UHGV virus genome: UHGV-1360357
Origin: a virus
DNA length: 29,070 nt
Direction: 5' to 3' (one strand)
Made by a program: the position numbers and the translations under genes
Notes under the pieces: generated by a model
Seen by the model: only the letters and a program-made list of their open reading frames with translations
The model's database searches: none
Told to the model about the DNA's origin: nothing
Part shown: piece after piece, positions 2,948-15,389 of the stretch
Layout of the letters: every line of letters begins with the position of its first letter
Numbering within the stretch: position 1 is the stretch's first letter

Positions 2948-3463
2948 ATGGCAAGCAGAGGCGTAAATAAGGTGATCATTATTGGTCGCCTTGGGCATGA
3001 TCCAGAAATCAGATATTCACCATCAGGAACGGCATTTGCAAACCTTACAGTTGCTACGTCAGAACAATGGCGTGATAAGCAAACTGGAGAGCAAAAGGAG
3101 CAGACGGAGTGGCACCGCGTGGTAATGAGCGGGAAACTGGCAGAAATTGCCAGCGAATATCTGCGAAAAGGCTCTGAGGTTTATCTTGAAGGAAAATTGC
3201 GGACAAGAAAATGGCAGGATCAAAGCGGACAGGATCGGTTCACTACTGAAGTCATCGTGGGCGTTGGTGGAACTATGCAAATGATTGGTGGCAAGCAAGG
3301 AGGCAATGAACAGTCTTCACCTCAGCGAAATGACGGTCAGCAACAAAGACAACAACCTCAGCAGCAAGGGAATCACAGCGAACCACCTATGGATTTTGAC
3401 GACGATATCCCCTTTGCACCAGTAACTCTCCCTTTCCCTCGTCACGCTATTCACGCAATTTAA
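2948..3463 (+). CDS. ssb: single-stranded DNA-binding protein
   Basis: N-terminal OB fold ([23 protein letters not shown]...), Gly/Gln-rich linker and acidic C-terminal tail ending DDDIPF, typical of bacterial/phage SSB; start ATG adjacent to the annealase stop. Confidence 0.9.
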
Positions 3464-3471
3464 GGACTTAC

Positions 3472-4020
3472 ATGAATCACTTGATGGTTGACCTTGAAAC
3501 AATGGGCAACGGGCCATACGCGCCAGTTATTTCTGTTGGGGCGGTATTCTTTGACCCGAATACCGGAGAAACAGGAGAAGAGTTCTCGGTAAATATCTCG
3601 CTTGAGTCATCAATGCGATATCGGGCGCGTCCTGACGCTTCAACGATTTTATGGTGGCTGGAACAGAGTGAAGAAGCCAGAAAATCGCTAACCAGCAACA
3701 CTCAAGAGCTTTCAACGGCTCTTTCATGGTTATCTGAATTCATCATAAAGAACGCCAACCACAAACTCGTTCAGGTTTGGGGGAATGGAGCATCATTTGA
3801 CTGCGTTATTCTCCGCAACAGTTATTCGCTGACAGGGAAGCCAGTTCCGTGGCAGTGGTGGAATGACCGCGACGTAAGAACAATCGTCGAACTTGGGAAG
3901 GTAATAGGATTCGATCCTAAGCGAGATATGCCATTCAAAGGAACTCGCCACAACGCGCTTGATGATGCCATCCACCAAGCCAAATACGTTTCAGCGATCT
4001 GGAAAAAGTTAGCTAAATAA
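3472..4020 (+). CDS. DnaQ-like DEDDh 3'-5' exonuclease
   Basis: Exo I motif VDLETMG, Exo II GNGASFDCVIL, Exo III HNALDDAIHQAKY; 182 aa; AAGGA RBS. Confidence 0.85.
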   Translation: MNHLMVDLETMGNGPYAPVISVGAVFFDPNTGETGEEFSVNISLESSMRYRARPDASTILWWLEQSEEARKSLTSNTQELSTALSWLSEFIIKNANHKLVQVWGNGASFDCVILRNSYSLTGKPVPWQWWNDRDVRTIVELGKVIGFDPKRDMPFKGTRHNALDDAIHQAKYVSAIWKKLAK

Positions 4021-8989: not shown

Positions 8990-10936
8990 TTAAAGAATAA
9001 TTCTTTCAACCTTCCAAGTTGCAGATCTACTTCCTGAAATTCCAACTCCATTTGAATCTTTGAGAAGAATTCTAAATGATGTTTCTGTTACCAAATCATA
9101 CGTTGCATTTATTGCTGCGCCATCTCCTATCGATATTGAGATAAAATCAGGCACAACTCCAAGTCCGTGAGTTATTATTTGTCCATTTGAATAAACCCCA
9201 GTTCCTATTTTAGTCGTTGCATACCCGGCATTGTTTGCAAGGACAACATTAACCGAATTTGCTCCTAATTTAGCAATCTTCCTATCAGATGAAATCTCTG
9301 TAGATTGTATTGCATTATTTGAAATAACTGCATCTTTTATAGCCCTGAAATCTCCAGGTGTTCCTGATACAGCATTAACAAGTATTGCATACTGCATACT
9401 TCTATCACTTCTTTTATTGCCGAAAGCATTACCGCAAATTGTTGTCCCGGTAAATCCAGATGCTCCCGTGTTATCAAGAAGAATTCCGCACCTATATGTA
9501 TTTGATGTATCAGAAGGCAAACCTATACCTCTTATGGAATTATTGGATACTATATTATTATCTGGCTTGACATTTGCATTATTGCAGTAAATGCGAATTC
9601 CAACATCACAAAATGCATCTAATACATTATCAGATATAACATTACCCGCTCCCCACACATCAATACCCATAAACGAATCAGCACCATCTCCAAAAAATTT
9701 ATTTTGAGTAACTATTGTTCCGCTACCCCTAATCAATATAGCAGGCCTTGGAATGCTTGAAGTCTTTTTGCTATCATTGTAGCCATGATTATCGTTTATA
9801 TGAGATTCCCCCCCCGCACTATCTATGCAGCAATTACACGAATCTATTATATTTTTATTTATCCTTACATAGACAGAATCGTGTTTTATACCTGTAATAA
9901 AATTTGATATGGAATTTGATACAAAACTAGTTGCCTTACATGGCAATGAAACGCCATGTATAGCGTCCTTAGACGCTCCTATGGCAACAAAATGTATCCC
10001 TGTAACAATTGCTGGGTTCTCATTAGATGATGTGTCACCTATGGTAATAGCAAAAGAATTCTCATCTTCAGGACCATCAATTGTTAATATCGTTTGTGGC
10101 GTATATCCTTGAGATATTTGCGATCCATTTCCTGAACCAAACCCTCTCATACTTACAAAAGATGGGATTCTTAGTTTTTCTGTTACTCTACAGTTGCCCC
10201 CCCAAAAAAATTCCTCTTTAACATGGGCAGCGGCCAGCATGATTGGAATTGTATCATCTTTAACTCCATCAAGCGTCGCTCCATAATTTCTAAGGTCATT
10301 GGTTTCATACCCATTTAAATAACCAATACATCTCCATCCTGTTGAGGTATATCTGGCAAATTTATCATCTGGGGGAACAGTAAAAGGAGGAACTGTCATT
10401 TCTCCTCCAGTTATTTCATTTTCATATACCCAAAACAACCCATCATAATCTTTGATTGCGCATCGGTTGTCTCGAATGATATTTTGCTTGTCATAGTTCC
10501 CACAATATGAAAAACCAGTTGCTAATTTCTGTAGATTTGTTCCTGATGCTGAGTTTATTAATGATGCGCCATTTTCGCTAGTTAATACATTATTTAGAGG
10601 GTCAGGATCATACTTCAGCACATTAGGAAAATAGAACTGCTGCGCACCGTACGCATCATAAACAGCCATAGAATGGCCTTGCACGGTTACGAATTTGGCA
10701 ATCTGTCCGTTATATGCAGGATACCCGCCAGCGTTAATGATGATTGGCTGTGCAACAGGAACGTGAGAACCGTCTTCATTCTCTACATAAACCTGAATCT
10801 GGTTTTCAGGATTTACCGGGTCAGTGTCAATTTTTCCGATATAAATTTTGCCATTGGCAACCGCTTTAAAAGAACGCGCCATAGTGAAGAGTTGCGAAGG
10901 CATGCTTACCACAACATTTGCGGTGATATCTGTCAT
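8990..10936 (-). CDS. tailspike protein (P22 gp9 family; conserved head-binding domain, divergent receptor-binding beta-helix)
   Basis: 648 aa; first ~115 residues ([58 protein letters not shown]...) match the P22/HK620-type tailspike head-binding domain; the rest is Asn/Gly/Ser-rich with beta-helix-like repeats but unrelated to the P22 endorhamnosidase domain. Confidence 0.9.
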
Positions 10937-10993: not shown

Positions 10994-11020
10994 TAAAAAA
11001 ACCCAGCCGAAGCTGGGTCG
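10994..11020 (-). terminator. intrinsic terminator downstream of ant
   Basis: On the - strand CCCAGC-ttcg-GCTGGG followed by TTTTTTTAT, between the ant stop and the tailspike RBS. Confidence 0.6.
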
Positions 11021-11036: not shown

Positions 11037-11993
11037 TCAGTAGTTATGTACTGAAGGAGGTAATTCTTTATTCTTAAGTCTCATCCATGCGGAAAGATTC
11101 GTTGGTCCGTCTGGCTCATTGATATCAACATCTCGTGTGTGATTGATTAAAACGTCTCTCGCCATATCGATAATACGGGAGAACTCATAACCGCAGTCAT
11201 GACATCTGCCGGAATAGTTCGATTGAATTTGTTTTAGCGCCGGATACAATTCGCGGAATAATGCCTGTGAGCGGTTGGCATAATCCCATAACCATACAAG
11301 GCTGTTTGCTTCTTTTGCAGAAAGCTCGTCGGTTTTCTTCTCTTGTTTGCCGATAAATTCACCTTCAAGCACTACCCTGTGGATGTACTCTACGGCCAGC
11401 GGGATTTGTTCAATTGAAAGTTCATCAATGCTGTCAATGCCAAAACGCTGATGAACCATATTGTATGCATCGTCATAGCGAAGTCCTTTCTTTCCTACCA
11501 GCATGTTTACTGCATCGCGTAGCGGTGTGCGTTCAGCTACTGAAGTTTTACCGCCAATAGCCTTCCTCTCTTGTGTGGCAGTAACTATTGCGTCATATGC
11601 GCGGATAACCTTCAGCGCAAATGCTGCGCTAATCCACATGGCGTAGGAGTAAACAAGCTCCTTGCACACGTATGTTCCACCATATCTACCTTTCTTAGAA
11701 ATGACGGGATTCTTATTCTGCATATCCGCAGAATTAAAAATTTCATTAATCAATTCAATAGTTTCATTTCTACGCATGAAGAAAGCTGGCTGATGTTTTT
11801 CCTCCTTTCCAGACGCTACATGAAGGTCATTAAGCGAGTAACGACCCTCTGAATCCATATGAATCTTGACGTCAGAAATGATGATGCTATTAGTGCAATT
11901 TACAGTTGACTTTGCTAAGCTTGACATATCAATAATACCTCGTAAGTTTTGTTGATACCGAAGCCCTGACTGTTCCCGCAGTTGGGGCTTCAC
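11037..11993 (-). CDS. ant: KilA-N domain antirepressor-like protein at the ant position
   Basis: 318 aa; N-terminal KilA-N-like motif (...[13 protein letters not shown] ... [23 protein letters not shown]); located downstream of arc and upstream of the tailspike as P22 ant is; the symbol is by position, orthology to P22 Ant unverified. Confidence 0.6.
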
Positions 11994-12211
11994 TGTTTTT
12001 GTAAGTCACTGTAGCTATAAAGCCACTGACCACTCATTTTTGATTTGATTGACTCTACTGAGTCACGGCAAGGAATGATTCCGCCTGACATCATTCTGAT
12101 CTCCGTAAATTCACCACTCCTTATCGATTCAATGCCATCAATGTTAACTAAAGATTTACCTCTACCAAGTGCATTCTCATAGCCAATCTCATCAACCTCA
12201 ATAAATCTCAT
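11990..12211 (-). CDS. hypothetical protein (73 aa) inserted between arc and ant
   Basis: ATGA overlaps at both ends (with the arc stop and the ant start) indicate translational coupling; no recognisable domain. Confidence 0.5.
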
Positions 12212-12348
12212 ACCGTTATCCCCTCTCTCTTCAAGCTGTCCATCACCCGTTTAATTACTTCTGCGCTAAATGAGCGACACTCTTCCTTTGCTTTTTCTTC
12301 AAGAATTTTTTCTAGCTTCTCTGGCATACGCAGTGTTTTTACCTTCAT
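12208..12348 (-). CDS. arc: Arc-like ribbon-helix-helix repressor (46 aa)
   Basis: Found by hand (below the 60-aa track cutoff): [46 protein letters not shown], aligning with P22 Arc (...FNLRWPREVLDLVRKVAEENGRSVNSEIYQRVMESFKKEGRIGA); GGAGG RBS. Confidence 0.7.
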   Translation of the reverse strand: MKVKTLRMPEKLEKILEEKAKEECRSFSAEVIKRVMDSLKREGITV

Positions 12349-12453
12349 TGCATCCTCCGTTGTATGTGGTACGCATACATAGTATTTAGGTACGCATTGA
12401 TAGTCAATAGATACCTACATATCCTGTGGTAAAAAATTATTCAGGATGCGCCT
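12349..12453. promoter_or_regulatory. divergent Pant/Pmnt-type promoter-operator region
   Basis: 105-bp intergenic region between divergent arc and mnt; inverted repeat TGTATG-N7-CATACA (12361-12379), direct repeats GGTACGCAT spaced 21 bp (12368, 12389), inverted repeat ATCCTG-N14-CAGGAT (12421-12446) overlapping the mnt RBS. Confidence 0.5.
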
Positions 12454-12705
12454 ATGTCTGATCGTAAGTACAAAAACCCTCAAGTGAATCTGAGGCTTCC
12501 TGTAGAGATAAAGGAACGTCTTATTGAACTGGCTGAGGCTAATTCTCGTTCATTAAATGCTGAGATGGTAGCAGCACTTGAGGCATGGACTGAAAAAAAT
12601 AAACATATTCAAGCACTAGATCTTGCAACTATAGCATCGCGGTTGATAGAGCTTGAGCATGAGGTTGAGAAGTTAAAATCTATACATGGCAACAGTGAAA
12701 AATGA
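12454..12705 (+). CDS. mnt: Mnt-like ribbon-helix-helix repressor
   Basis: 83 aa; PQVNLRLPVEIKERLIELAEANSRSLNAEMVAALEAW aligns with P22 Mnt (PHFNFRMPMEVREKLKFRAEANGRSMNSELLQIVQDAL); divergent from arc as in P22 immI. Confidence 0.75.
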   Translation: MSDRKYKNPQVNLRLPVEIKERLIELAEANSRSLNAEMVAALEAWTEKNKHIQALDLATIASRLIELEHEVEKLKSIHGNSEK

Positions 12706-13016
12706 AACGTATCGCTATTTTGTTAATATTGTTCTTCTCTACAATAGTTTTCGCCAAACCAAAATCAGATAATGGCGATCTTAAAGGCCTGCAAGAACTC
12801 ATGATAACTTCGAAATTTGCTGGCATGTGCGGCACAATCAAACAAATGGCAACATTTCAAGAATCAACAAAAATGCCTGGCGGAGATGAGTTCTTACAGC
12901 GTTTTCTGACCACAGAGCAAGCAAGACTAGGAATGAATCCACAGGAATTTCTTGAAGCATGCCAGAAGTCAATTTCAGCTTATACCAATTATTACAATCT
13001 AACTTCTGATAAATAA
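12702..13016 (+). CDS. secreted (signal-peptide) protein, 104 aa, unknown function
   Basis: ATGA-coupled to mnt; N-terminal signal peptide MKRIAILLILFFSTIVFA with an AxA-like cleavage site; mature part contains two Cys. Confidence 0.65.
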   Translation: MKRIAILLILFFSTIVFAKPKSDNGDLKGLQELMITSKFAGMCGTIKQMATFQESTKMPGGDEFLQRFLTTEQARLGMNPQEFLEACQKSISAYTNYYNLTSDK

Positions 13017-13041: not shown

Positions 13042-13527
13042 ATGAAAAAATCACTATTAATTGTCCCGCTTCTGCTGGCTGGATGCGCAAAAGTAAGTGA
13101 CTACCAAGCAAGTTGCGAACAACGCTATCCAAAGCTTAGTGATATGGCTAATTGCCTTGATGCCAGCGTGAAGAACGACTCACGCATGGCATCAGCACCA
13201 ACACCTAAGCTGTATGTCCTTGCTGCGAAGATGCTCGGGCAAGGTGTCGATCAAGGCAAGATAAGTGACGCACAGGCAAGACTTGAGCTTCAGAATCTTT
13301 ATGTTCAATTACAAAGCCAAGAACAAGCCCAACAAATAGCACAAAGCCAAGCATTCCAGCAGGCTTTATTGAATTATCAGGCTGTAAACACAATGCAAGC
13401 GATCGAGCAAAAAGCGCGCCAGCCTGTTATAACTCAACCTTACCCAACACGCGTTGACACATATACAAACTGCAATTCAGGTTTTGGAAACACGGTAACA
13501 TGCAACAGTAGCAGTAATATCAGGTAG
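13042..13527 (+). CDS. lipoprotein (lipobox LLAGC, +2 Ala), 161 aa, Gln-rich
   Basis: MKKSLLIVPLLLAGC lipoprotein signal; residue after the Cys is Ala (not Asp), consistent with outer-membrane sorting; Gln-rich helical middle, Cys/Asn-rich C-terminus. The RBS is weak or distant. Confidence 0.65.
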   Translation: MKKSLLIVPLLLAGCAKVSDYQASCEQRYPKLSDMANCLDASVKNDSRMASAPTPKLYVLAAKMLGQGVDQGKISDAQARLELQNLYVQLQSQEQAQQIAQSQAFQQALLNYQAVNTMQAIEQKARQPVITQPYPTRVDTYTNCNSGFGNTVTCNSSSNIR

Positions 13528-13541
13528 TTATATCTTATCTT

Positions 13542-15389
13542 TTATTGCTGTTCTGCTGTAATTTGGCTTGAAAGTATAGGGCGTATCGCATTTGCAGCAT
13601 TATTTAGCGCTCTTTCATAGGCTGGTGTTCCTGCTTTGGTGTTTGCCAAACGTAAGAGAGCATTCCTTGCTGCTTTGGACTCATACAAGCGCATCATTGC
13701 ACCGAAACCAGCCTCAAGCCCCATTGATACGCCAAGAGTCGCAGTTGCGCCAATCGTCCTTATCCTGTTGGCTTGCGATTGCCCCGTCTGAGTTACTACA
13801 TTTGCGGTGTCTGACCTTGCTGTTTGCTGCAGAACTTCATGAAGAGCATCAAGTTCTTTCATGTGCTTTCCAGAAAAAATAGTGTTGTAAATTTCACCGC
13901 CTGACTGAGATTTCAGCTTATTAACTTCAGTGATGAACTTGGCTGGAGAGTCACCGGCCTTTTCCGCTATTTTGCTGACGTAAGCTGCACGCATAGCATC
14001 TTTCCCTTTATCATCCAGTGCGCTCCAGATTCGTTTCACGTCAGATGGTTTTCTGCTTAATACAACGGTATTTATAAGTTCAGGACTGGCTTCACTGCTT
14101 GCCTTGTTGAGTTTGTTAGCAATGTTTTTATTAAGCACCTTATTATAAACGTTTGCATAATCGGAATTTGCTTTAAGGTATTTTGCTGCGTCTGATGCAC
14201 CGAGGTTTTTAGCAACTGCGTTACGAAGGTCTTTTGACATTGCATTCTCTACCATATTGGTAGCTGCTTTTGCCTGGTTGGGGAAGACCATAGCATCTCC
14301 CTGAACATTAGATCTAAATGCTGTTCTGTGCTGACGCAAGAGATCAAACGTAACATCCAAATCAGTTGCAGGGTTTGCTAATTCTTCACGTAGGTTACGC
14401 AAGGATGTAAGCAGGCTTTGATTGGCAGACGTCCCAAGTCGTTCCTGTCTTGCGATCGCTGTATTCAGAGCATTCATGGTATTTGTGGTATCAACTGCGG
14501 CATTACCCATTTTATTGGTGACGTCATTGATAACAGCGCCAGCGGCATCCTTCCTCCCCCTTAACGTGGTGGTCAGAGATTTCACCACATCATCAGGGTT
14601 GTACTCACCAAAACGGTCAAAATAATTACTTACCAGCTTACTACGCGTTGCATATTGCTCCGCTCGCTTTGAGCCTGTCCCGAGCAAAGCCCCCTCGGCA
14701 TCCTGAGTAAGGCCGCGAGTGAAAGCATTTTTCGGCGGGATAACATCAGATGTCATTGGTGTCACGCCCATCGATTCTGATGTGGCAATTTTCTTCGCCA
14801 CTTCTGGCGCAATATCACCTTTTATAGCCGTTATTCCACGCCCTATTCCCTTTGCTGCGGCGGAAAGAACACCCTGAGCGGCAAGGTTAACTCCGGCATT
14901 TTTAGCTGCATTTTGTGCGAAATCGCCTTTCTGATTTGCGGCCTCTGCCAGTGATCCAATAGCCATGCTTCCTGCCGTTCCAACTCCTGGAACTAAATAC
15001 CCACCAATTGTTTCACCGGCTTGTGCGTAGGGGTCTGTCGGTCTGTCTACTGGACGATAAACATCATCCAAAACCTTGGGTCCACCAAGCCCCTGACTGA
15101 TTGCATTAATCAGACTTGCGCCACCCTGCAATACGTCAAATGGTATGTTTACCAGACCACGACCAGCCTGTTCTGCAATTTGCCCTGCACTTTGACCACC
15201 AGTGAGCCAATCGCCAGCTTGTTGCATCAATGATGGTTCTTCCCGTGTTGGTGCATTATTGTCCTGATTAACTGTTTGTTGCTGAACAGCCTGACCAGCA
15301 AAATACTCATCAATGGCGGCCCCAATATCTTCCGTGCTCGTACCATCAGGGAAGGTAAATGTCTTACCGTTTGCAGTTACTTTCATCAT
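13542..15389 (-). CDS. ejection (injection) protein, P22 gp16 homolog
   Basis: 615 aa; N-terminus (M)[32 protein letters not shown]; size and position match P22 gp16. Confidence 0.8.

Follow-up and report, generated by a model that had tools for sequence, protein, structure and literature searches.

A small cargo gene, orf73, in the arc-sar slot of a P22-type immI operon in the virus genome UHGV-1360357

In this study, we found that the region from position 11,000 to position 12,705 of the virus genome UHGV-1360357 is a complete P22-type immI operon with mnt, arc, sar and an antirepressor gene, and that it is an ordinary secondary immunity region. The window, that is, the whole stretch of DNA that was analysed, comprises 29,070 nucleotides. 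The operon carries one extra gene, orf73. Between arc and sar, P22-like phages have a recombination slot for small cargo genes that replace one another, and orf73 belongs to a set of at least seven such genes. The anatomical part of this account (the immI operon, the identity of Ant, and orf73 as a real slot gene without specificity for one Ant type) is very likely to be correct, and we hold the full explanation, with the anatomy and the function of orf73 taken together, with moderate confidence. The antirepressor part is textbook and contains nothing new. No earlier description of the arc-sar exchange slot was found in the literature searched.

The immI region and its control elements

The features of the region and its flanks are as follows.

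8990-10936, minus strand: tailspike gene, with a P22 head-binding domain
11000-11019, minus strand: intrinsic terminator after ant and upstream of the tailspike gene (terminator scan; Emek and epsilon34 have an annotated terminator at this site)
11037-11927, minus strand: ant, 296 aa from the ATG at 11927 (Pfam KilA-N and P22_AR_C; AF2 domain layout)
11929-11994, plus strand: sar RNA gene (Rfam RF00262 at 61.7 bits, gathering score 43, E = 1.2e-11)
11960-11991, plus strand: sar terminator hairpin, its U-run encoded by the last orf73 codons (terminator scan)
12211-11990, minus strand: orf73, 73 aa (conservation, dN/dS 0.25, same-slot homologue, predicted fold)
12348-12208, minus strand: arc homologue, 46 aa (Pfam Arc, E = 2.9e-9; GGAGG upstream of the ATG)
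12361-12425, both strands: candidate divergent promoter/operator region (consensus scan and repeat search)
12407-12379, minus strand: Pant-like candidate promoter, TTGACT-17-TACTAT
12397-12425, plus strand: Pmnt-like candidate promoter, TTGATA-17-TATCCT
12383-12421: 18-nt inverted repeat (repeat search)
12368-12409: two 21-nt tandem repeats (repeat search)
12454-12705, plus strand: mnt homologue, 83 aa, a ribbon-helix-helix repressor (Pfam Arc, E = 2.8e-10; phrog_795, E = 1.2e-23)
13542-15389: ORF covered by a megablast alignment with E. coli prophage genes that carry a DNA transfer/ejection protein annotation

The two repressor genes of the Arc/Mnt ribbon-helix-helix family (Pfam Arc) lie on opposite strands with 105 nt between them, and the mnt homologue, divergent from arc, occupies the position of mnt in P22 and epsilon34. 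The gene order mnt, divergent promoter region, arc, sar, ant, terminator and tailspike matches the annotated P22, epsilon34 and Emek. Villafane et al. (2008, PMC2629481) described the P22 immI (mnt - Pmnt/Pant - arc - sar - ant), also known as the 'ant moron' of P22-like phages. Our region agrees with it in genes, order and orientation, in its site, with the ejection-protein genes on one side and the tailspike gene on the other, in an Rfam-recognised sar, in an identical 36-nt hairpin block, and in the C-terminal 170 residues of Ant, which are 83% identical. It differs from P22 in the extra coupled ORF between arc and sar, in its operator sequences, in the N-terminal module of Ant (KilA-N here, P22_AR_N in P22), and in an arc allele of 46 aa whose N-terminal strand and C-terminus are unlike those of P22 arc.

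The intergenic region between the two repressor genes holds two face-to-face promoter matches of 9/12 and an 18-nt palindrome; across the scanned region, promoter-like sites are no more numerous than the shuffled expectation. At the level of consensus matches alone, the annotated Pmnt/Pant/arcO layout of epsilon34 parallels this candidate region. In such a layout, the Mnt and Arc repressors would face each other across overlapping divergent promoters, and a single Pant transcript would carry arc, orf73 and ant.

The sar gene fills the 62-nt spacer between orf73 and ant and is complementary to the ribosome-binding site and leader of ant, so that sar made from the opposite strand would cover the ant ribosome-binding site. 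A block of 36 nt in the hairpin is invariant among this phage, P22, epsilon34 and Kapi1, and stem 1 of sar is maintained by compensatory changes. In the KilA-N variant, the hexamers of the putative Psar are weak (GTGCAA / TAAGCT).

orf73 and the arc-sar slot

The earlier note on this DNA had described an arc homologue followed by a 73-aa ORF, and both are present on the minus strand. It also placed the start and the stop of orf73 in ATGA overlaps; this holds for the start, where the orf73 ATG and the arc stop overlap as ATGA at 12211-12208, and fails for the stop, where the sequence reads GTGA at 11993-11990. The conserved block of the sar hairpin begins with the three bases of the orf73 TGA. 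AGAGGGG stands 8 nt before the orf73 ATG, and the last arc codons (AAG AGA GAG GGG ...) constitute the Shine-Dalgarno sequence of orf73. The tight coupling proposed for orf73 was upheld toward arc; toward the downstream gene it is wrong, since the two are parted by sar and by a separate ribosome-binding site. The statement of the earlier note that P22 has no gene between arc and ant was borne out, as only a 68-nt gap is found there.

Judged by its sequence conservation, orf73 is a real protein-coding gene and not a chance ORF. Its eight DNA alleles differ mostly by synonymous or conservative changes, with pN/pS mostly below 0.5. A homologue, orf84, shares 65% identity by HMMER (64% in the alignment) and 72% nucleotide identity with orf73; the dN/dS between the two is 0.25, and the 33-nt insertion of orf84 in the alignment stays in frame. 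orf84 occupies the identical arc-sar slot, with a GTGA overlap with arc and a stop inside the hairpin. The product of orf73 is an acidic protein of 8 kDa (pI 5.0; 11 D/E vs 9 K/R). As the earlier note had said, it has no recognisable domain, none being detected at threshold in Pfam, NCBIfam or PADLOC.

The orf73 gene was found in 51 of 5426 complete E. coli genomes, adjoining arc every time, and its protein is 100% identical to an ORF of Salmonella phage vB_SemP_Emek (NC_018275) annotated 'orf73, hypothetical protein'. Emek has the same arc-orf73-sar-ant arrangement, with 97% DNA identity over ant, orf73 and the arc 3' end; the N-terminal part of its arc and its mnt are unlike those here. Escherichia phage vB_EcoP-611R6 (ON470589) also shares the arrangement and differs in carrying a P22-type Ant N-terminus. 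In both records orf73 is without an assigned function.

The family is very narrow, comprising eight clusters at 90% identity and, among 1.8 billion representatives, a single distant relative. The phmmer search of 1.84 billion representatives returned one true distant relative (P0008) and one spurious match to a repeat protein (P0009), and no further relative came from a profile search with a cut-off of E = 10. No orf73 locus was found in GTDB species representatives, the PDB sequence search gave a chance match alone (FAIM1, E = 0.16), and among 50,697 phage records tblastn, with matches up to E = 10 admitted, recovered only Emek, 611R6 and two chance helicase matches.

The slot was surveyed in 120 related hairpin-bearing IMG/VR viral contigs listed. 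One of seven unrelated small ORFs occupies it in 52 of them (43%), and 67 loci have no gene there; among the reference phages, P22 is likewise empty and the slot gene of CUS-3 is orf67. Every slot ORF fills the gap in a single frame and has an ATGA or GTGA overlap with the arc stop, and all arc genes followed by a slot gene end in ...DSLK(R/K)(E/D)G(I/V)x(V/I/A). In the phages without cargo, the arc stop is followed after 0-4 nt by the same hairpin, and therefore the stop of a cargo gene restores the same geometry. One bound of the slot is the arc 3' end, whose last codons give the cargo its Shine-Dalgarno sequence and whose stop overlaps the cargo start. The other is the beginning of the sar hairpin, where the TGA serves as the cargo stop. 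The alternatives to orf73 include a membrane protein, zinc-ribbon proteins and ClpX zinc-finger-like mini-proteins, and PHROGs assigns no function to any of the slot genes.

The cargo genes and the types of Ant assort freely. orf73 lies upstream of four Ant N-terminal types (KilA-N, P22-type, 307-aa and Bro-N-like), and the KilA-N Ant is found behind orf60, orf67 or orf73. These combinations speak against the idea that orf73 serves the KilA-N protein as its own partner or chaperone, since the same gene accompanies four Ant types and the KilA-N Ant also follows two other slot genes.

Predicted fold and possible role of orf73

The AF2 model of orf73 (pLDDT 81.6, pTM 0.70), built on an alignment of six sequences and with two of five models confident, shows two strands, a short helical (3-10) turn, three strands and a terminal helix. 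Its top BFVD matches are phage proteins named 'flagellar and swarming motility' (TM 0.6-0.7). Against Pfam FlbD (PF06289), orf73 scored 14.6 bits, under the gathering score of 24.7 (E = 0.025), and all six members of the family match FlbD weakly (E 0.007-0.025). All family members keep an N-xxx-[IL]-E motif, which is N23-IDG-I27-E28 in orf73 and N-VSG-I-E in orf84. Taken together, the model, the weak Pfam matches and the structural neighbours point to a SwrD/FlbD-like (RemA/LytTR-related) fold.

Crystal structures of SwrD reported in a preprint (PMC13232269) identified a ring-forming flagellar protein with RemA and LytTR as structural neighbours, and the biochemical function of SwrD is an open question even in Bacillus (PMC13232269). 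The predicted topology of orf73, the N-xxx-[IL]-E motif at the turn, the RemA/LytTR neighbours, the weak Pfam matches throughout the family and the BFVD neighbours, which are phage proteins annotated with the SwrD/FlbD family, all agree with this relationship. On the other hand, the Pfam score is below threshold, and the Pro-Asp-Thr motif of the SwrD strand 3-4 loop is absent in the orf73 family, which has S-G-E-F-T or G-G-D-V-T instead and keeps only the Thr and an acidic residue. In addition, orf73 lies in a phage immunity operon and SwrD/FlbD in a flagellar operon, and SwrD is absent from the host genera Escherichia and Salmonella, at least for Escherichia according to PMC13232269.

We favour the explanation that orf73 is an early-burst accessory protein outside the antirepressor machinery proper. 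Its translation would be coupled to that of arc, because the arc end supplies the Shine-Dalgarno sequence and the arc stop overlaps the orf73 start. The protein would be made in the brief, strong Pant burst right after infection, or when Mnt is absent, until Arc shuts the promoter; we infer this timing, as it is taken from P22 genetics. It would then form a ring oligomer and bind a host or competitor protein, and its role would be an accessory one, such as host take-over or counter-defence, and not DNA binding or KilA-N chaperoning. This functional reading, an accessory protein that forms rings and has its target in the host or in a competitor, is a tentative proposal. A wider version is more doubtful, namely that the arc-sar junction is a new exchange slot for Pant-burst effectors in which orf73 would be a SwrD-fold ring factor for counter-defence or host take-over and the ClpX zinc-finger-like slot-mates could interfere with ClpXP.

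The logic of such a burst effector resembles, by analogy, that of anti-CRISPR operons with Aca repressors.

Among the other explanations, the one that survives best holds that orf73 acts on the immI proteins as a modulator or partner, binding the shared middle/C-terminal module of Ant, or Arc, and tuning the activity or stability of the antirepressor. orf73 lies in the arc-ant operon, where it would be co-transcribed and translationally coupled, and every Ant type behind it has the same C-terminal module; because all Ant types share this module, the free assortment leaves room for binding to the shared part. The free assortment of cargo and Ant type nevertheless speaks against it, 67 of the 120 loci lack a slot gene, and seven unrelated slot proteins are ill-suited to the place of a required partner. 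We regard this explanation as unlikely.

The immI of phage P1 is controlled by the c4 antisense RNA. In favour of such a partner, its layout is loosely comparable, as the small icd ORF, also of 73 aa, shares the immI operon with the P1 antirepressor; the operon assignment follows the title that PMC11897509 cites for Riedel (1993). However, the target of Icd is not Ant, as Icd inhibits FtsZ (PMC11897509), and orf73 has no similarity to any P1 sequence. It is moreover coupled to arc and split from ant by sar and the 62-nt gap, and nothing suggests FtsZ inhibition for orf73. Homology between orf73 and Icd was rejected, as the tblastn search of the phage records, which admitted matches up to E = 10, gave none to P1.

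Slightly less probable still is a RemA/LytTR-type nucleic-acid-binding regulator, acting either as the immunity region's third transcription factor or as an RNA-binding ring that aids or blocks the pairing of sar with ant mRNA. orf73 abuts the sar gene and overlaps the sar terminator; the SwrD fold is reminiscent of DNA/RNA-binding proteins, and sigD transcript levels are altered in a swrD mutant (PMC13232269). In RemA, however, the DNA-binding arginines are carried on a helix inserted between strands, and SwrD has no DNA-binding motifs (PMC13232269). The orf73 model has no helix between the third and fourth strands and lacks the basic DNA-contacting residues of the RemA type (Arg51/Arg53, in the helical insertion between strands 3 and 4), and the protein is acidic. 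Nor does the slot select for one regulatory role, because the alternative occupants include membrane and zinc-ribbon proteins.

It is improbable that orf73 has no protein function, either because translation alone matters by carrying ribosomes from arc to the sar hairpin, or because the gene is a neutral passenger. The cargo stop does reproduce the arc-stop/hairpin geometry of the cargo-less phages, and the family is very narrow, but the dN/dS of 0.25 against the 72%-identical DNA homologue, the frame-preserving 33-nt indel, the conservative replacements among alleles and the confident prediction of a compact fold with independent weak sequence support all argue for a selected protein.

These findings indicate that the P22 immI, a classic model operon, has a precisely bounded and often occupied slot whose cargo uses the arc end as a ribosome-binding site. 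If any of the slot genes are counter-defence or host take-over factors, more of them could be sought in the slot at little cost; should the genes be neutral passengers, the result would amount to a small annotation correction only. A phage SwrD/FlbD-like orf73 in E. coli or Salmonella may also offer a simple handle on what the ring fold binds.

The antirepressor gene

Sequence comparison indicates that the 296-aa product is a genuine Ant antirepressor with a swapped KilA-N N-terminal module, an architecture that is common and already named. The N-terminal KilA-N domain that the earlier note had recognised was confirmed (PF04383, E = 1.1e-19, about residues 13-115). The C-terminal half, which it had called uncharacterised, proved to be P22_AR_C (PF10548, E = 8e-28), residues 127-296 being 83% identical to residues 131-300 of P22 Ant over 170 residues. 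P22_AR_N is absent, and the N-terminus has no similarity to P22 Ant residues 1-130. The former size of 318 aa was an over-extension from GTG 11993. This start was rejected, as it has no Shine-Dalgarno sequence and falls within the sequence that flanks the sar terminator hairpin on its 5' side. GAGG stands 10 nt upstream of ATG 11927, and the homologues of Emek and 611R6 are annotated from the equivalent ATG. There are 4337 homologues of ant; the combination of KilA-N and P22_AR_C is common in Enterobacteriaceae, and NCBI names members of the cluster 'phage antirepressor Ant'. The complete immI, the identity to P22 Ant and this name support the classical antirepressor among the roles suggested earlier.

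A BstA-like abortive-infection defence protein, which had also been suggested, is highly improbable: the protein has KilA-N at its N-terminus, as in BstA of BTP1 (ST313-td), and PADLOC gave a partial match of 51 residues of the KilA-N domain to the candidate defence family PDC-S22, but PADLOC matched no named defence-system protein, the similarity to BTP1 BstA ends with KilA-N and is not significant (a single pairwise BLASTP, E = 0.045, 54 residues), the C-terminal 170 residues are those of P22 Ant, and ant lies in immI, whereas bstA of BTP1 adjoins the c1 repressor gene. The regulatory logic also differs, since ant under the control of Mnt, Arc and sar would be off in the lysogen, the opposite of a prophage-expressed defence gene.

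Structure prediction of Ant (AF2), used to examine the fold of its C-terminal half, was of moderate confidence (pLDDT 73, pTM 0.36), with flexible linkers. A Foldseek search of the PDB with this model gave nothing below E = 0.01, with weak DdrC and Mbp1 (APSES) matches only, and the PDB sequence search gave no matches; because no solved relative exists, the assignment of the C-terminal part rests on the sequence identity to P22 Ant. KilA-N is one of at least four N-terminal modules carried on the same Ant C-terminal body, and domain swapping in the Ant network has already been documented (PMC10111431).

The cassette is a P22 immI operon that varies in two ways already catalogued: the antirepressor, Ant, shows domain swapping, and the ant moron shows gene flux. 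The arrangement of arc, orf73, sar and ant is already present in GenBank, and the overall interest of the cassette is modest. What is new here is the corrected gene model (Ant of 296 instead of 318 aa), the definition of a slot between arc and sar with seven occupants, and the tentative assignment of a SwrD-like fold to orf73, the 73-aa ORF in that slot.

Layout of the immI region

The genes are arranged as follows.

12454-12705, plus strand: mnt homologue, 83 aa (Pfam Arc-like ribbon-helix-helix repressor, E 2.8e-10)
12348-12208, minus strand: arc homologue, 46 aa (Pfam Arc-like ribbon-helix-helix repressor, E 2.9e-9)
12211-11990, minus strand: orf73, 73 aa
End at 11037, minus strand: ant ORF (Pfam KilA-N, E 1.1e-19, and P22_AR_C, E 8e-28)
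11019-11000, minus strand: intrinsic terminator
10936-8990, minus strand: tailspike gene, 648 aa (Pfam P22 head-binding domain at the N-terminus)

The mnt ORF is located 105 nt to the right of the arc ORF on the opposite strand, and the interval between them carries promoter-like sites that face each other, together with an 18-nt palindrome and a pair of 21-nt tandem repeats, a layout resembling that annotated between arc and mnt in phage epsilon34. The 62 nt between orf73 and ant are filled by sar, an antisense RNA gene (11929-11994, plus strand; Rfam RF00262, 61.7 bits against a gathering score of 43, E 1.2e-11), whose terminator hairpin occupies 11960-11991. A 36-nt block with this hairpin is invariant across the window, epsilon34 (P22-type), Kapi1, Salmonella phage vB_SemP_Emek (Emek) and Escherichia phage vB_EcoP-611R6 (611R6). 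With the genes listed above, the sar gene and the invariant block, the immI region is complete and of P22 type, the promoters and operators between arc and mnt being putative. Elsewhere the window is the genome of a P22-like phage: an Erf-type recombinase, SSB, Ea genes and an integrase are on one flank and, on the other, a run of ORFs, matched by annotated genes for DNA transfer/ejection, portal and capsid proteins, leads to the large terminase gene.

The tandem repeats, at 12368-12409 (GGTACGCATACATAGTATTTA and GGTACGCATTGATAGTCAATA), share 76% identity and overlap the putative promoter and operator region; the palindrome was observed at 12383-12421. Repeats and palindrome probably serve as the operators for Arc and Mnt in this immI specificity. 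Two ORFs (12702-13016 and 13042-13527, plus strand) stand between mnt and ORF 13542-15389; the prophage matches over the latter carry annotations as DNA transfer/ejection genes. On the P22 map, sieA occupies this interval. One of the two ORFs has a Sec-type signal peptide (MKRIAILLILFFSTIVFA) and the other a lipoprotein signal (LLAGC); their PHROGs matches are phrog_19844 and phrog_6067, with no function given in either. Both are candidates for envelope proteins and may act in superinfection exclusion.

The antirepressor and its gene junctions

The N-terminal KilA-N domain described in the earlier note is present in the protein downstream of orf73. The C-terminal half, regarded there as uncharacterised, carries P22_AR_C. 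Residues 127-296 align with P22 Ant residues 131-300 at 83% identity, and the sequence before them, 126 residues long, is unrelated to P22 Ant. At an E cutoff of 1e-10 the protein has 4337 homologues. Fusions of KilA-N with P22_AR_C turn up repeatedly in Escherichia, Salmonella, Enterobacter and Klebsiella, alongside fusions of P22_AR_C with Bro-N or with P22_AR_N, and several of these clusters are named "phage antirepressor Ant" by NCBI. The exchange of domains within this "Bro network" has been documented (PMC10111431). We conclude from sequence comparison that the KilA-N protein is most probably an orthologue of Ant whose N-terminal module has been exchanged, in agreement with the classical antirepressor proposed as one option. 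A second option, an Abi-type protein like BstA, was rejected, as nothing favours it beyond the shared KilA-N domain: the likeness to BTP1 BstA is confined to a 54-residue stretch (E 0.045), and PADLOC gave only a partial match to a candidate family. Structure prediction had been suggested for the C-terminal half; in the AF2 model of Ant (pLDDT 73) a linker joins KilA-N to a helical middle domain, and another linker joins this to a helical domain at the C-terminus. No similar solved structure was found for the helical part.

The arc stop and the orf73 start overlap in ATGA (12211-12208), as had been noted, with AGAGGGG 8 nt upstream. The orf73 stop had been placed in a second ATGA overlap; the sequence is GTGA (11993-11990), and no Shine-Dalgarno sequence precedes its GTG. 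The ATG at 11927 is preceded by GAGG 10 nt upstream and is where the Emek and 611R6 records begin their matching genes, so the downstream gene is assigned 296 aa in place of the 318 aa reported earlier.

The sar gene was absent from that earlier listing. Its model scores 87.7 bits in loci with P22-type Ant, and stem 1 varies with the Ant type yet stays paired (AUCAA..UUGAU in the window, GUUGGU..ACUGAC in P22). All Ant types start with M-x-S-[I/V/L]-A whatever their N-terminal domain (Ant genes of L001-L023; window 11913-11927, minus strand), and these first codons, read on the opposite strand, form the -10 hexamer of the sar promoter, Psar, which is TATACT in most. Psar of the KilA-N type has TAAGCT at -10 and GTGCAA at -35, and because of these hexamers sar may be made less efficiently in this type.

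orf73 and the slot between arc and sar

The orf73 protein is 100% identical to an Emek ORF already labelled "orf73, hypothetical protein". The gene was found in 3 phage records, 16 IMG/VR loci and 51 of 5426 complete E. coli genomes, in the last always with the Arc gene adjoining, and in none of the GTDB species representatives. The family is narrow (5.8 billion proteins contain eight 90%-identity clusters of it), and an exhaustive HMMER search of 1.84 billion representatives returned one distant relative, the 84-aa P0008 (65% identity). The P0008 contig holds mnt, arc, the ORF, sar and the start of the ant gene, and the overlap of the ORF with the arc stop is GTGA. At the nucleotide level the two genes are 72% identical, with an in-frame 11-codon insertion and a dN/dS of 0.25; the eight DNA alleles of orf73 have 16 variable sites with conservative replacements and a pN/pS mostly below 0.5. 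The allele pattern, the dN/dS, the in-frame insertion and the same setting of P0008 show that orf73 is a conserved protein-coding gene at a conserved address.

A 90-aa NCBI protein (P0002) is an orf73 variant without the normal stop, reading on through the sar hairpin, which suggests a frameshift near the orf73 3' end in some prophages. A further protein from the exhaustive HMMER search (P0009; 541 aa, highly repetitive) matched the motif GQWSYSY only, eight times, and was treated as a chance repeat match.

The exact sar hairpin was searched in IMG/VR, giving a sample of at least 120 contigs (L026-L145). Among the matches listed, 67 of 120 contigs have no cargo, their arc stopping 0-32 nt short of the hairpin like that of P22; in 52 the gap is taken up by a single ORF in one frame, and no arc gene was recognised in 1. 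Every slot ORF overlaps the arc stop at its start, through ATGA or GTGA, and its own stop codon is the TGA with which the hairpin opens. At least seven unrelated occupants occur among the matches listed, and PHROGs gave no function for any of the seven.

Occupants of the arc-sar slot among the matches listed (numbers in names are lengths in aa)
orf57: at least 8 contigs; no Pfam match
orf60: at least 4 contigs; Pfam ClpX C4 zinc finger (E 4e-11) as a free-standing domain
orf63: at least 1 contig; two Cys pairs (CxxC), like orf60
orf67: at least 20 contigs; two Cys pairs (CxxC)
orf73: at least 10 contigs; predicted SwrD/FlbD-like fold
orf74: at least 5 contigs; weak ClpX zinc-finger match, Cys pairs resembling those of orf60
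orf89: at least 4 contigs; predicted membrane segment and coiled coil

Occupant and Ant type assort freely, and the KilA-N Ant also follows orf60 or orf67 in some loci. The Ant downstream of orf73 has four N-termini: KilA-N (296 aa), P22-type (300 aa), a 307-aa type and Bro-N-like (292 aa). The proposal that orf73 is a partner or chaperone of the KilA-N Ant was therefore abandoned. Upstream, Arc has at least three N-terminal (operator-reading) alleles; what is constant across orf73 loci, close variants included, is the last stretch of Arc, the codons of which are the orf73 ribosome-binding site. The arc alleles with a slot gene all end in ...DSLK(R/K)(E/D)G(I/V)x(V/I/A) (window 12208-12240, minus strand), codons that form the cargo Shine-Dalgarno sequence, and the P22-type arc ends in ...ESFKKEGRIGA. 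In at least 9 contigs a near-identical ending, DSL(R/M)REGITV, lies only 32 nt before the hairpin, perhaps as a scar left when a cargo gene was lost.

Phage CUS-3 (L003, CP000711) carries orf67 in the slot (3111-3314, minus strand). Its 'bsq2 boundary sequence' (3057-3538) holds orf67, sar and an unannotated arc gene, this arc being the same allele as that of the window (MKVKTLRMPEK...). Villafane et al. 2008 listed CUS-3 as a phage without arc; in their account the whole region is an "ant moron" that changes quickly (PMC2629481). No published description of the arc-sar slot was found in a literature search.

Predicted fold and possible role of orf73

The earlier note saw no recognisable domain in orf73, which holds at the Pfam threshold; below it, all six family members examined matched FlbD/SwrD (E 0.007-0.025), independently of structure, and no other Pfam family. 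The AF2 model from six sequences (mean pLDDT 81.6, pTM 0.70; two of five models confident) has five strands, with a one-turn helix after the second and a helix after the fifth. The top Foldseek matches among predicted viral structures were phage proteins named "flagellar and swarming motility protein" (TM 0.6-0.7). A 2026 preprint reported SwrD crystal structures of the same topology, in which a conserved Asn-xxx-Leu/Ile motif, with Glu after it, holds a hexameric ring together, with RemA, AgrA-LytTR and ComK as structural neighbours (PMC13232269). The orf73 protein has N23-IDG-I27-E28, P0008 has N-VSG-I-E, and the orf73 model has structural neighbours in common with SwrD. However, the Pro-Asp-Thr loop motif of SwrD is lost, the Pfam score is below threshold and the genomic context is not flagellar, so orf73 is predicted to be SwrD-like in fold and is not a proven family member.

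Ribosomes coming off arc would translate orf73, given the ATGA overlap and the Shine-Dalgarno sequence embedded in arc. In P22, the arc-ant promoter Pant fires strongly at infection and is then shut by Arc, and it is kept off by Mnt in lysogens. If Pant behaves likewise here, orf73 would be made in a short early burst alongside Arc and Ant, and its predicted fold suggests that it would form a ring and work by protein binding. We favour an accessory role with the host or competitors as its target, rather than one within the immunity circuit, because the slot is often empty and the other occupants are unrelated small proteins. Alternatively, orf73 may modulate Arc or the Ant body that all these loci share, or the act of translating it may be what matters. 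It may also be a RemA/LytTR-like nucleic-acid binder, possibly acting on sar, but this reading is weakened by its acidic pI of 5.0 and by the model, in which the helix between the third and fourth strands, the site of the DNA-binding arginines of RemA, is absent.

A comparable gene of 73 aa, icd, stands in the immI operon of phage P1; its product acts on FtsZ (PMC11897509), and icd is unrelated to orf73 in sequence.
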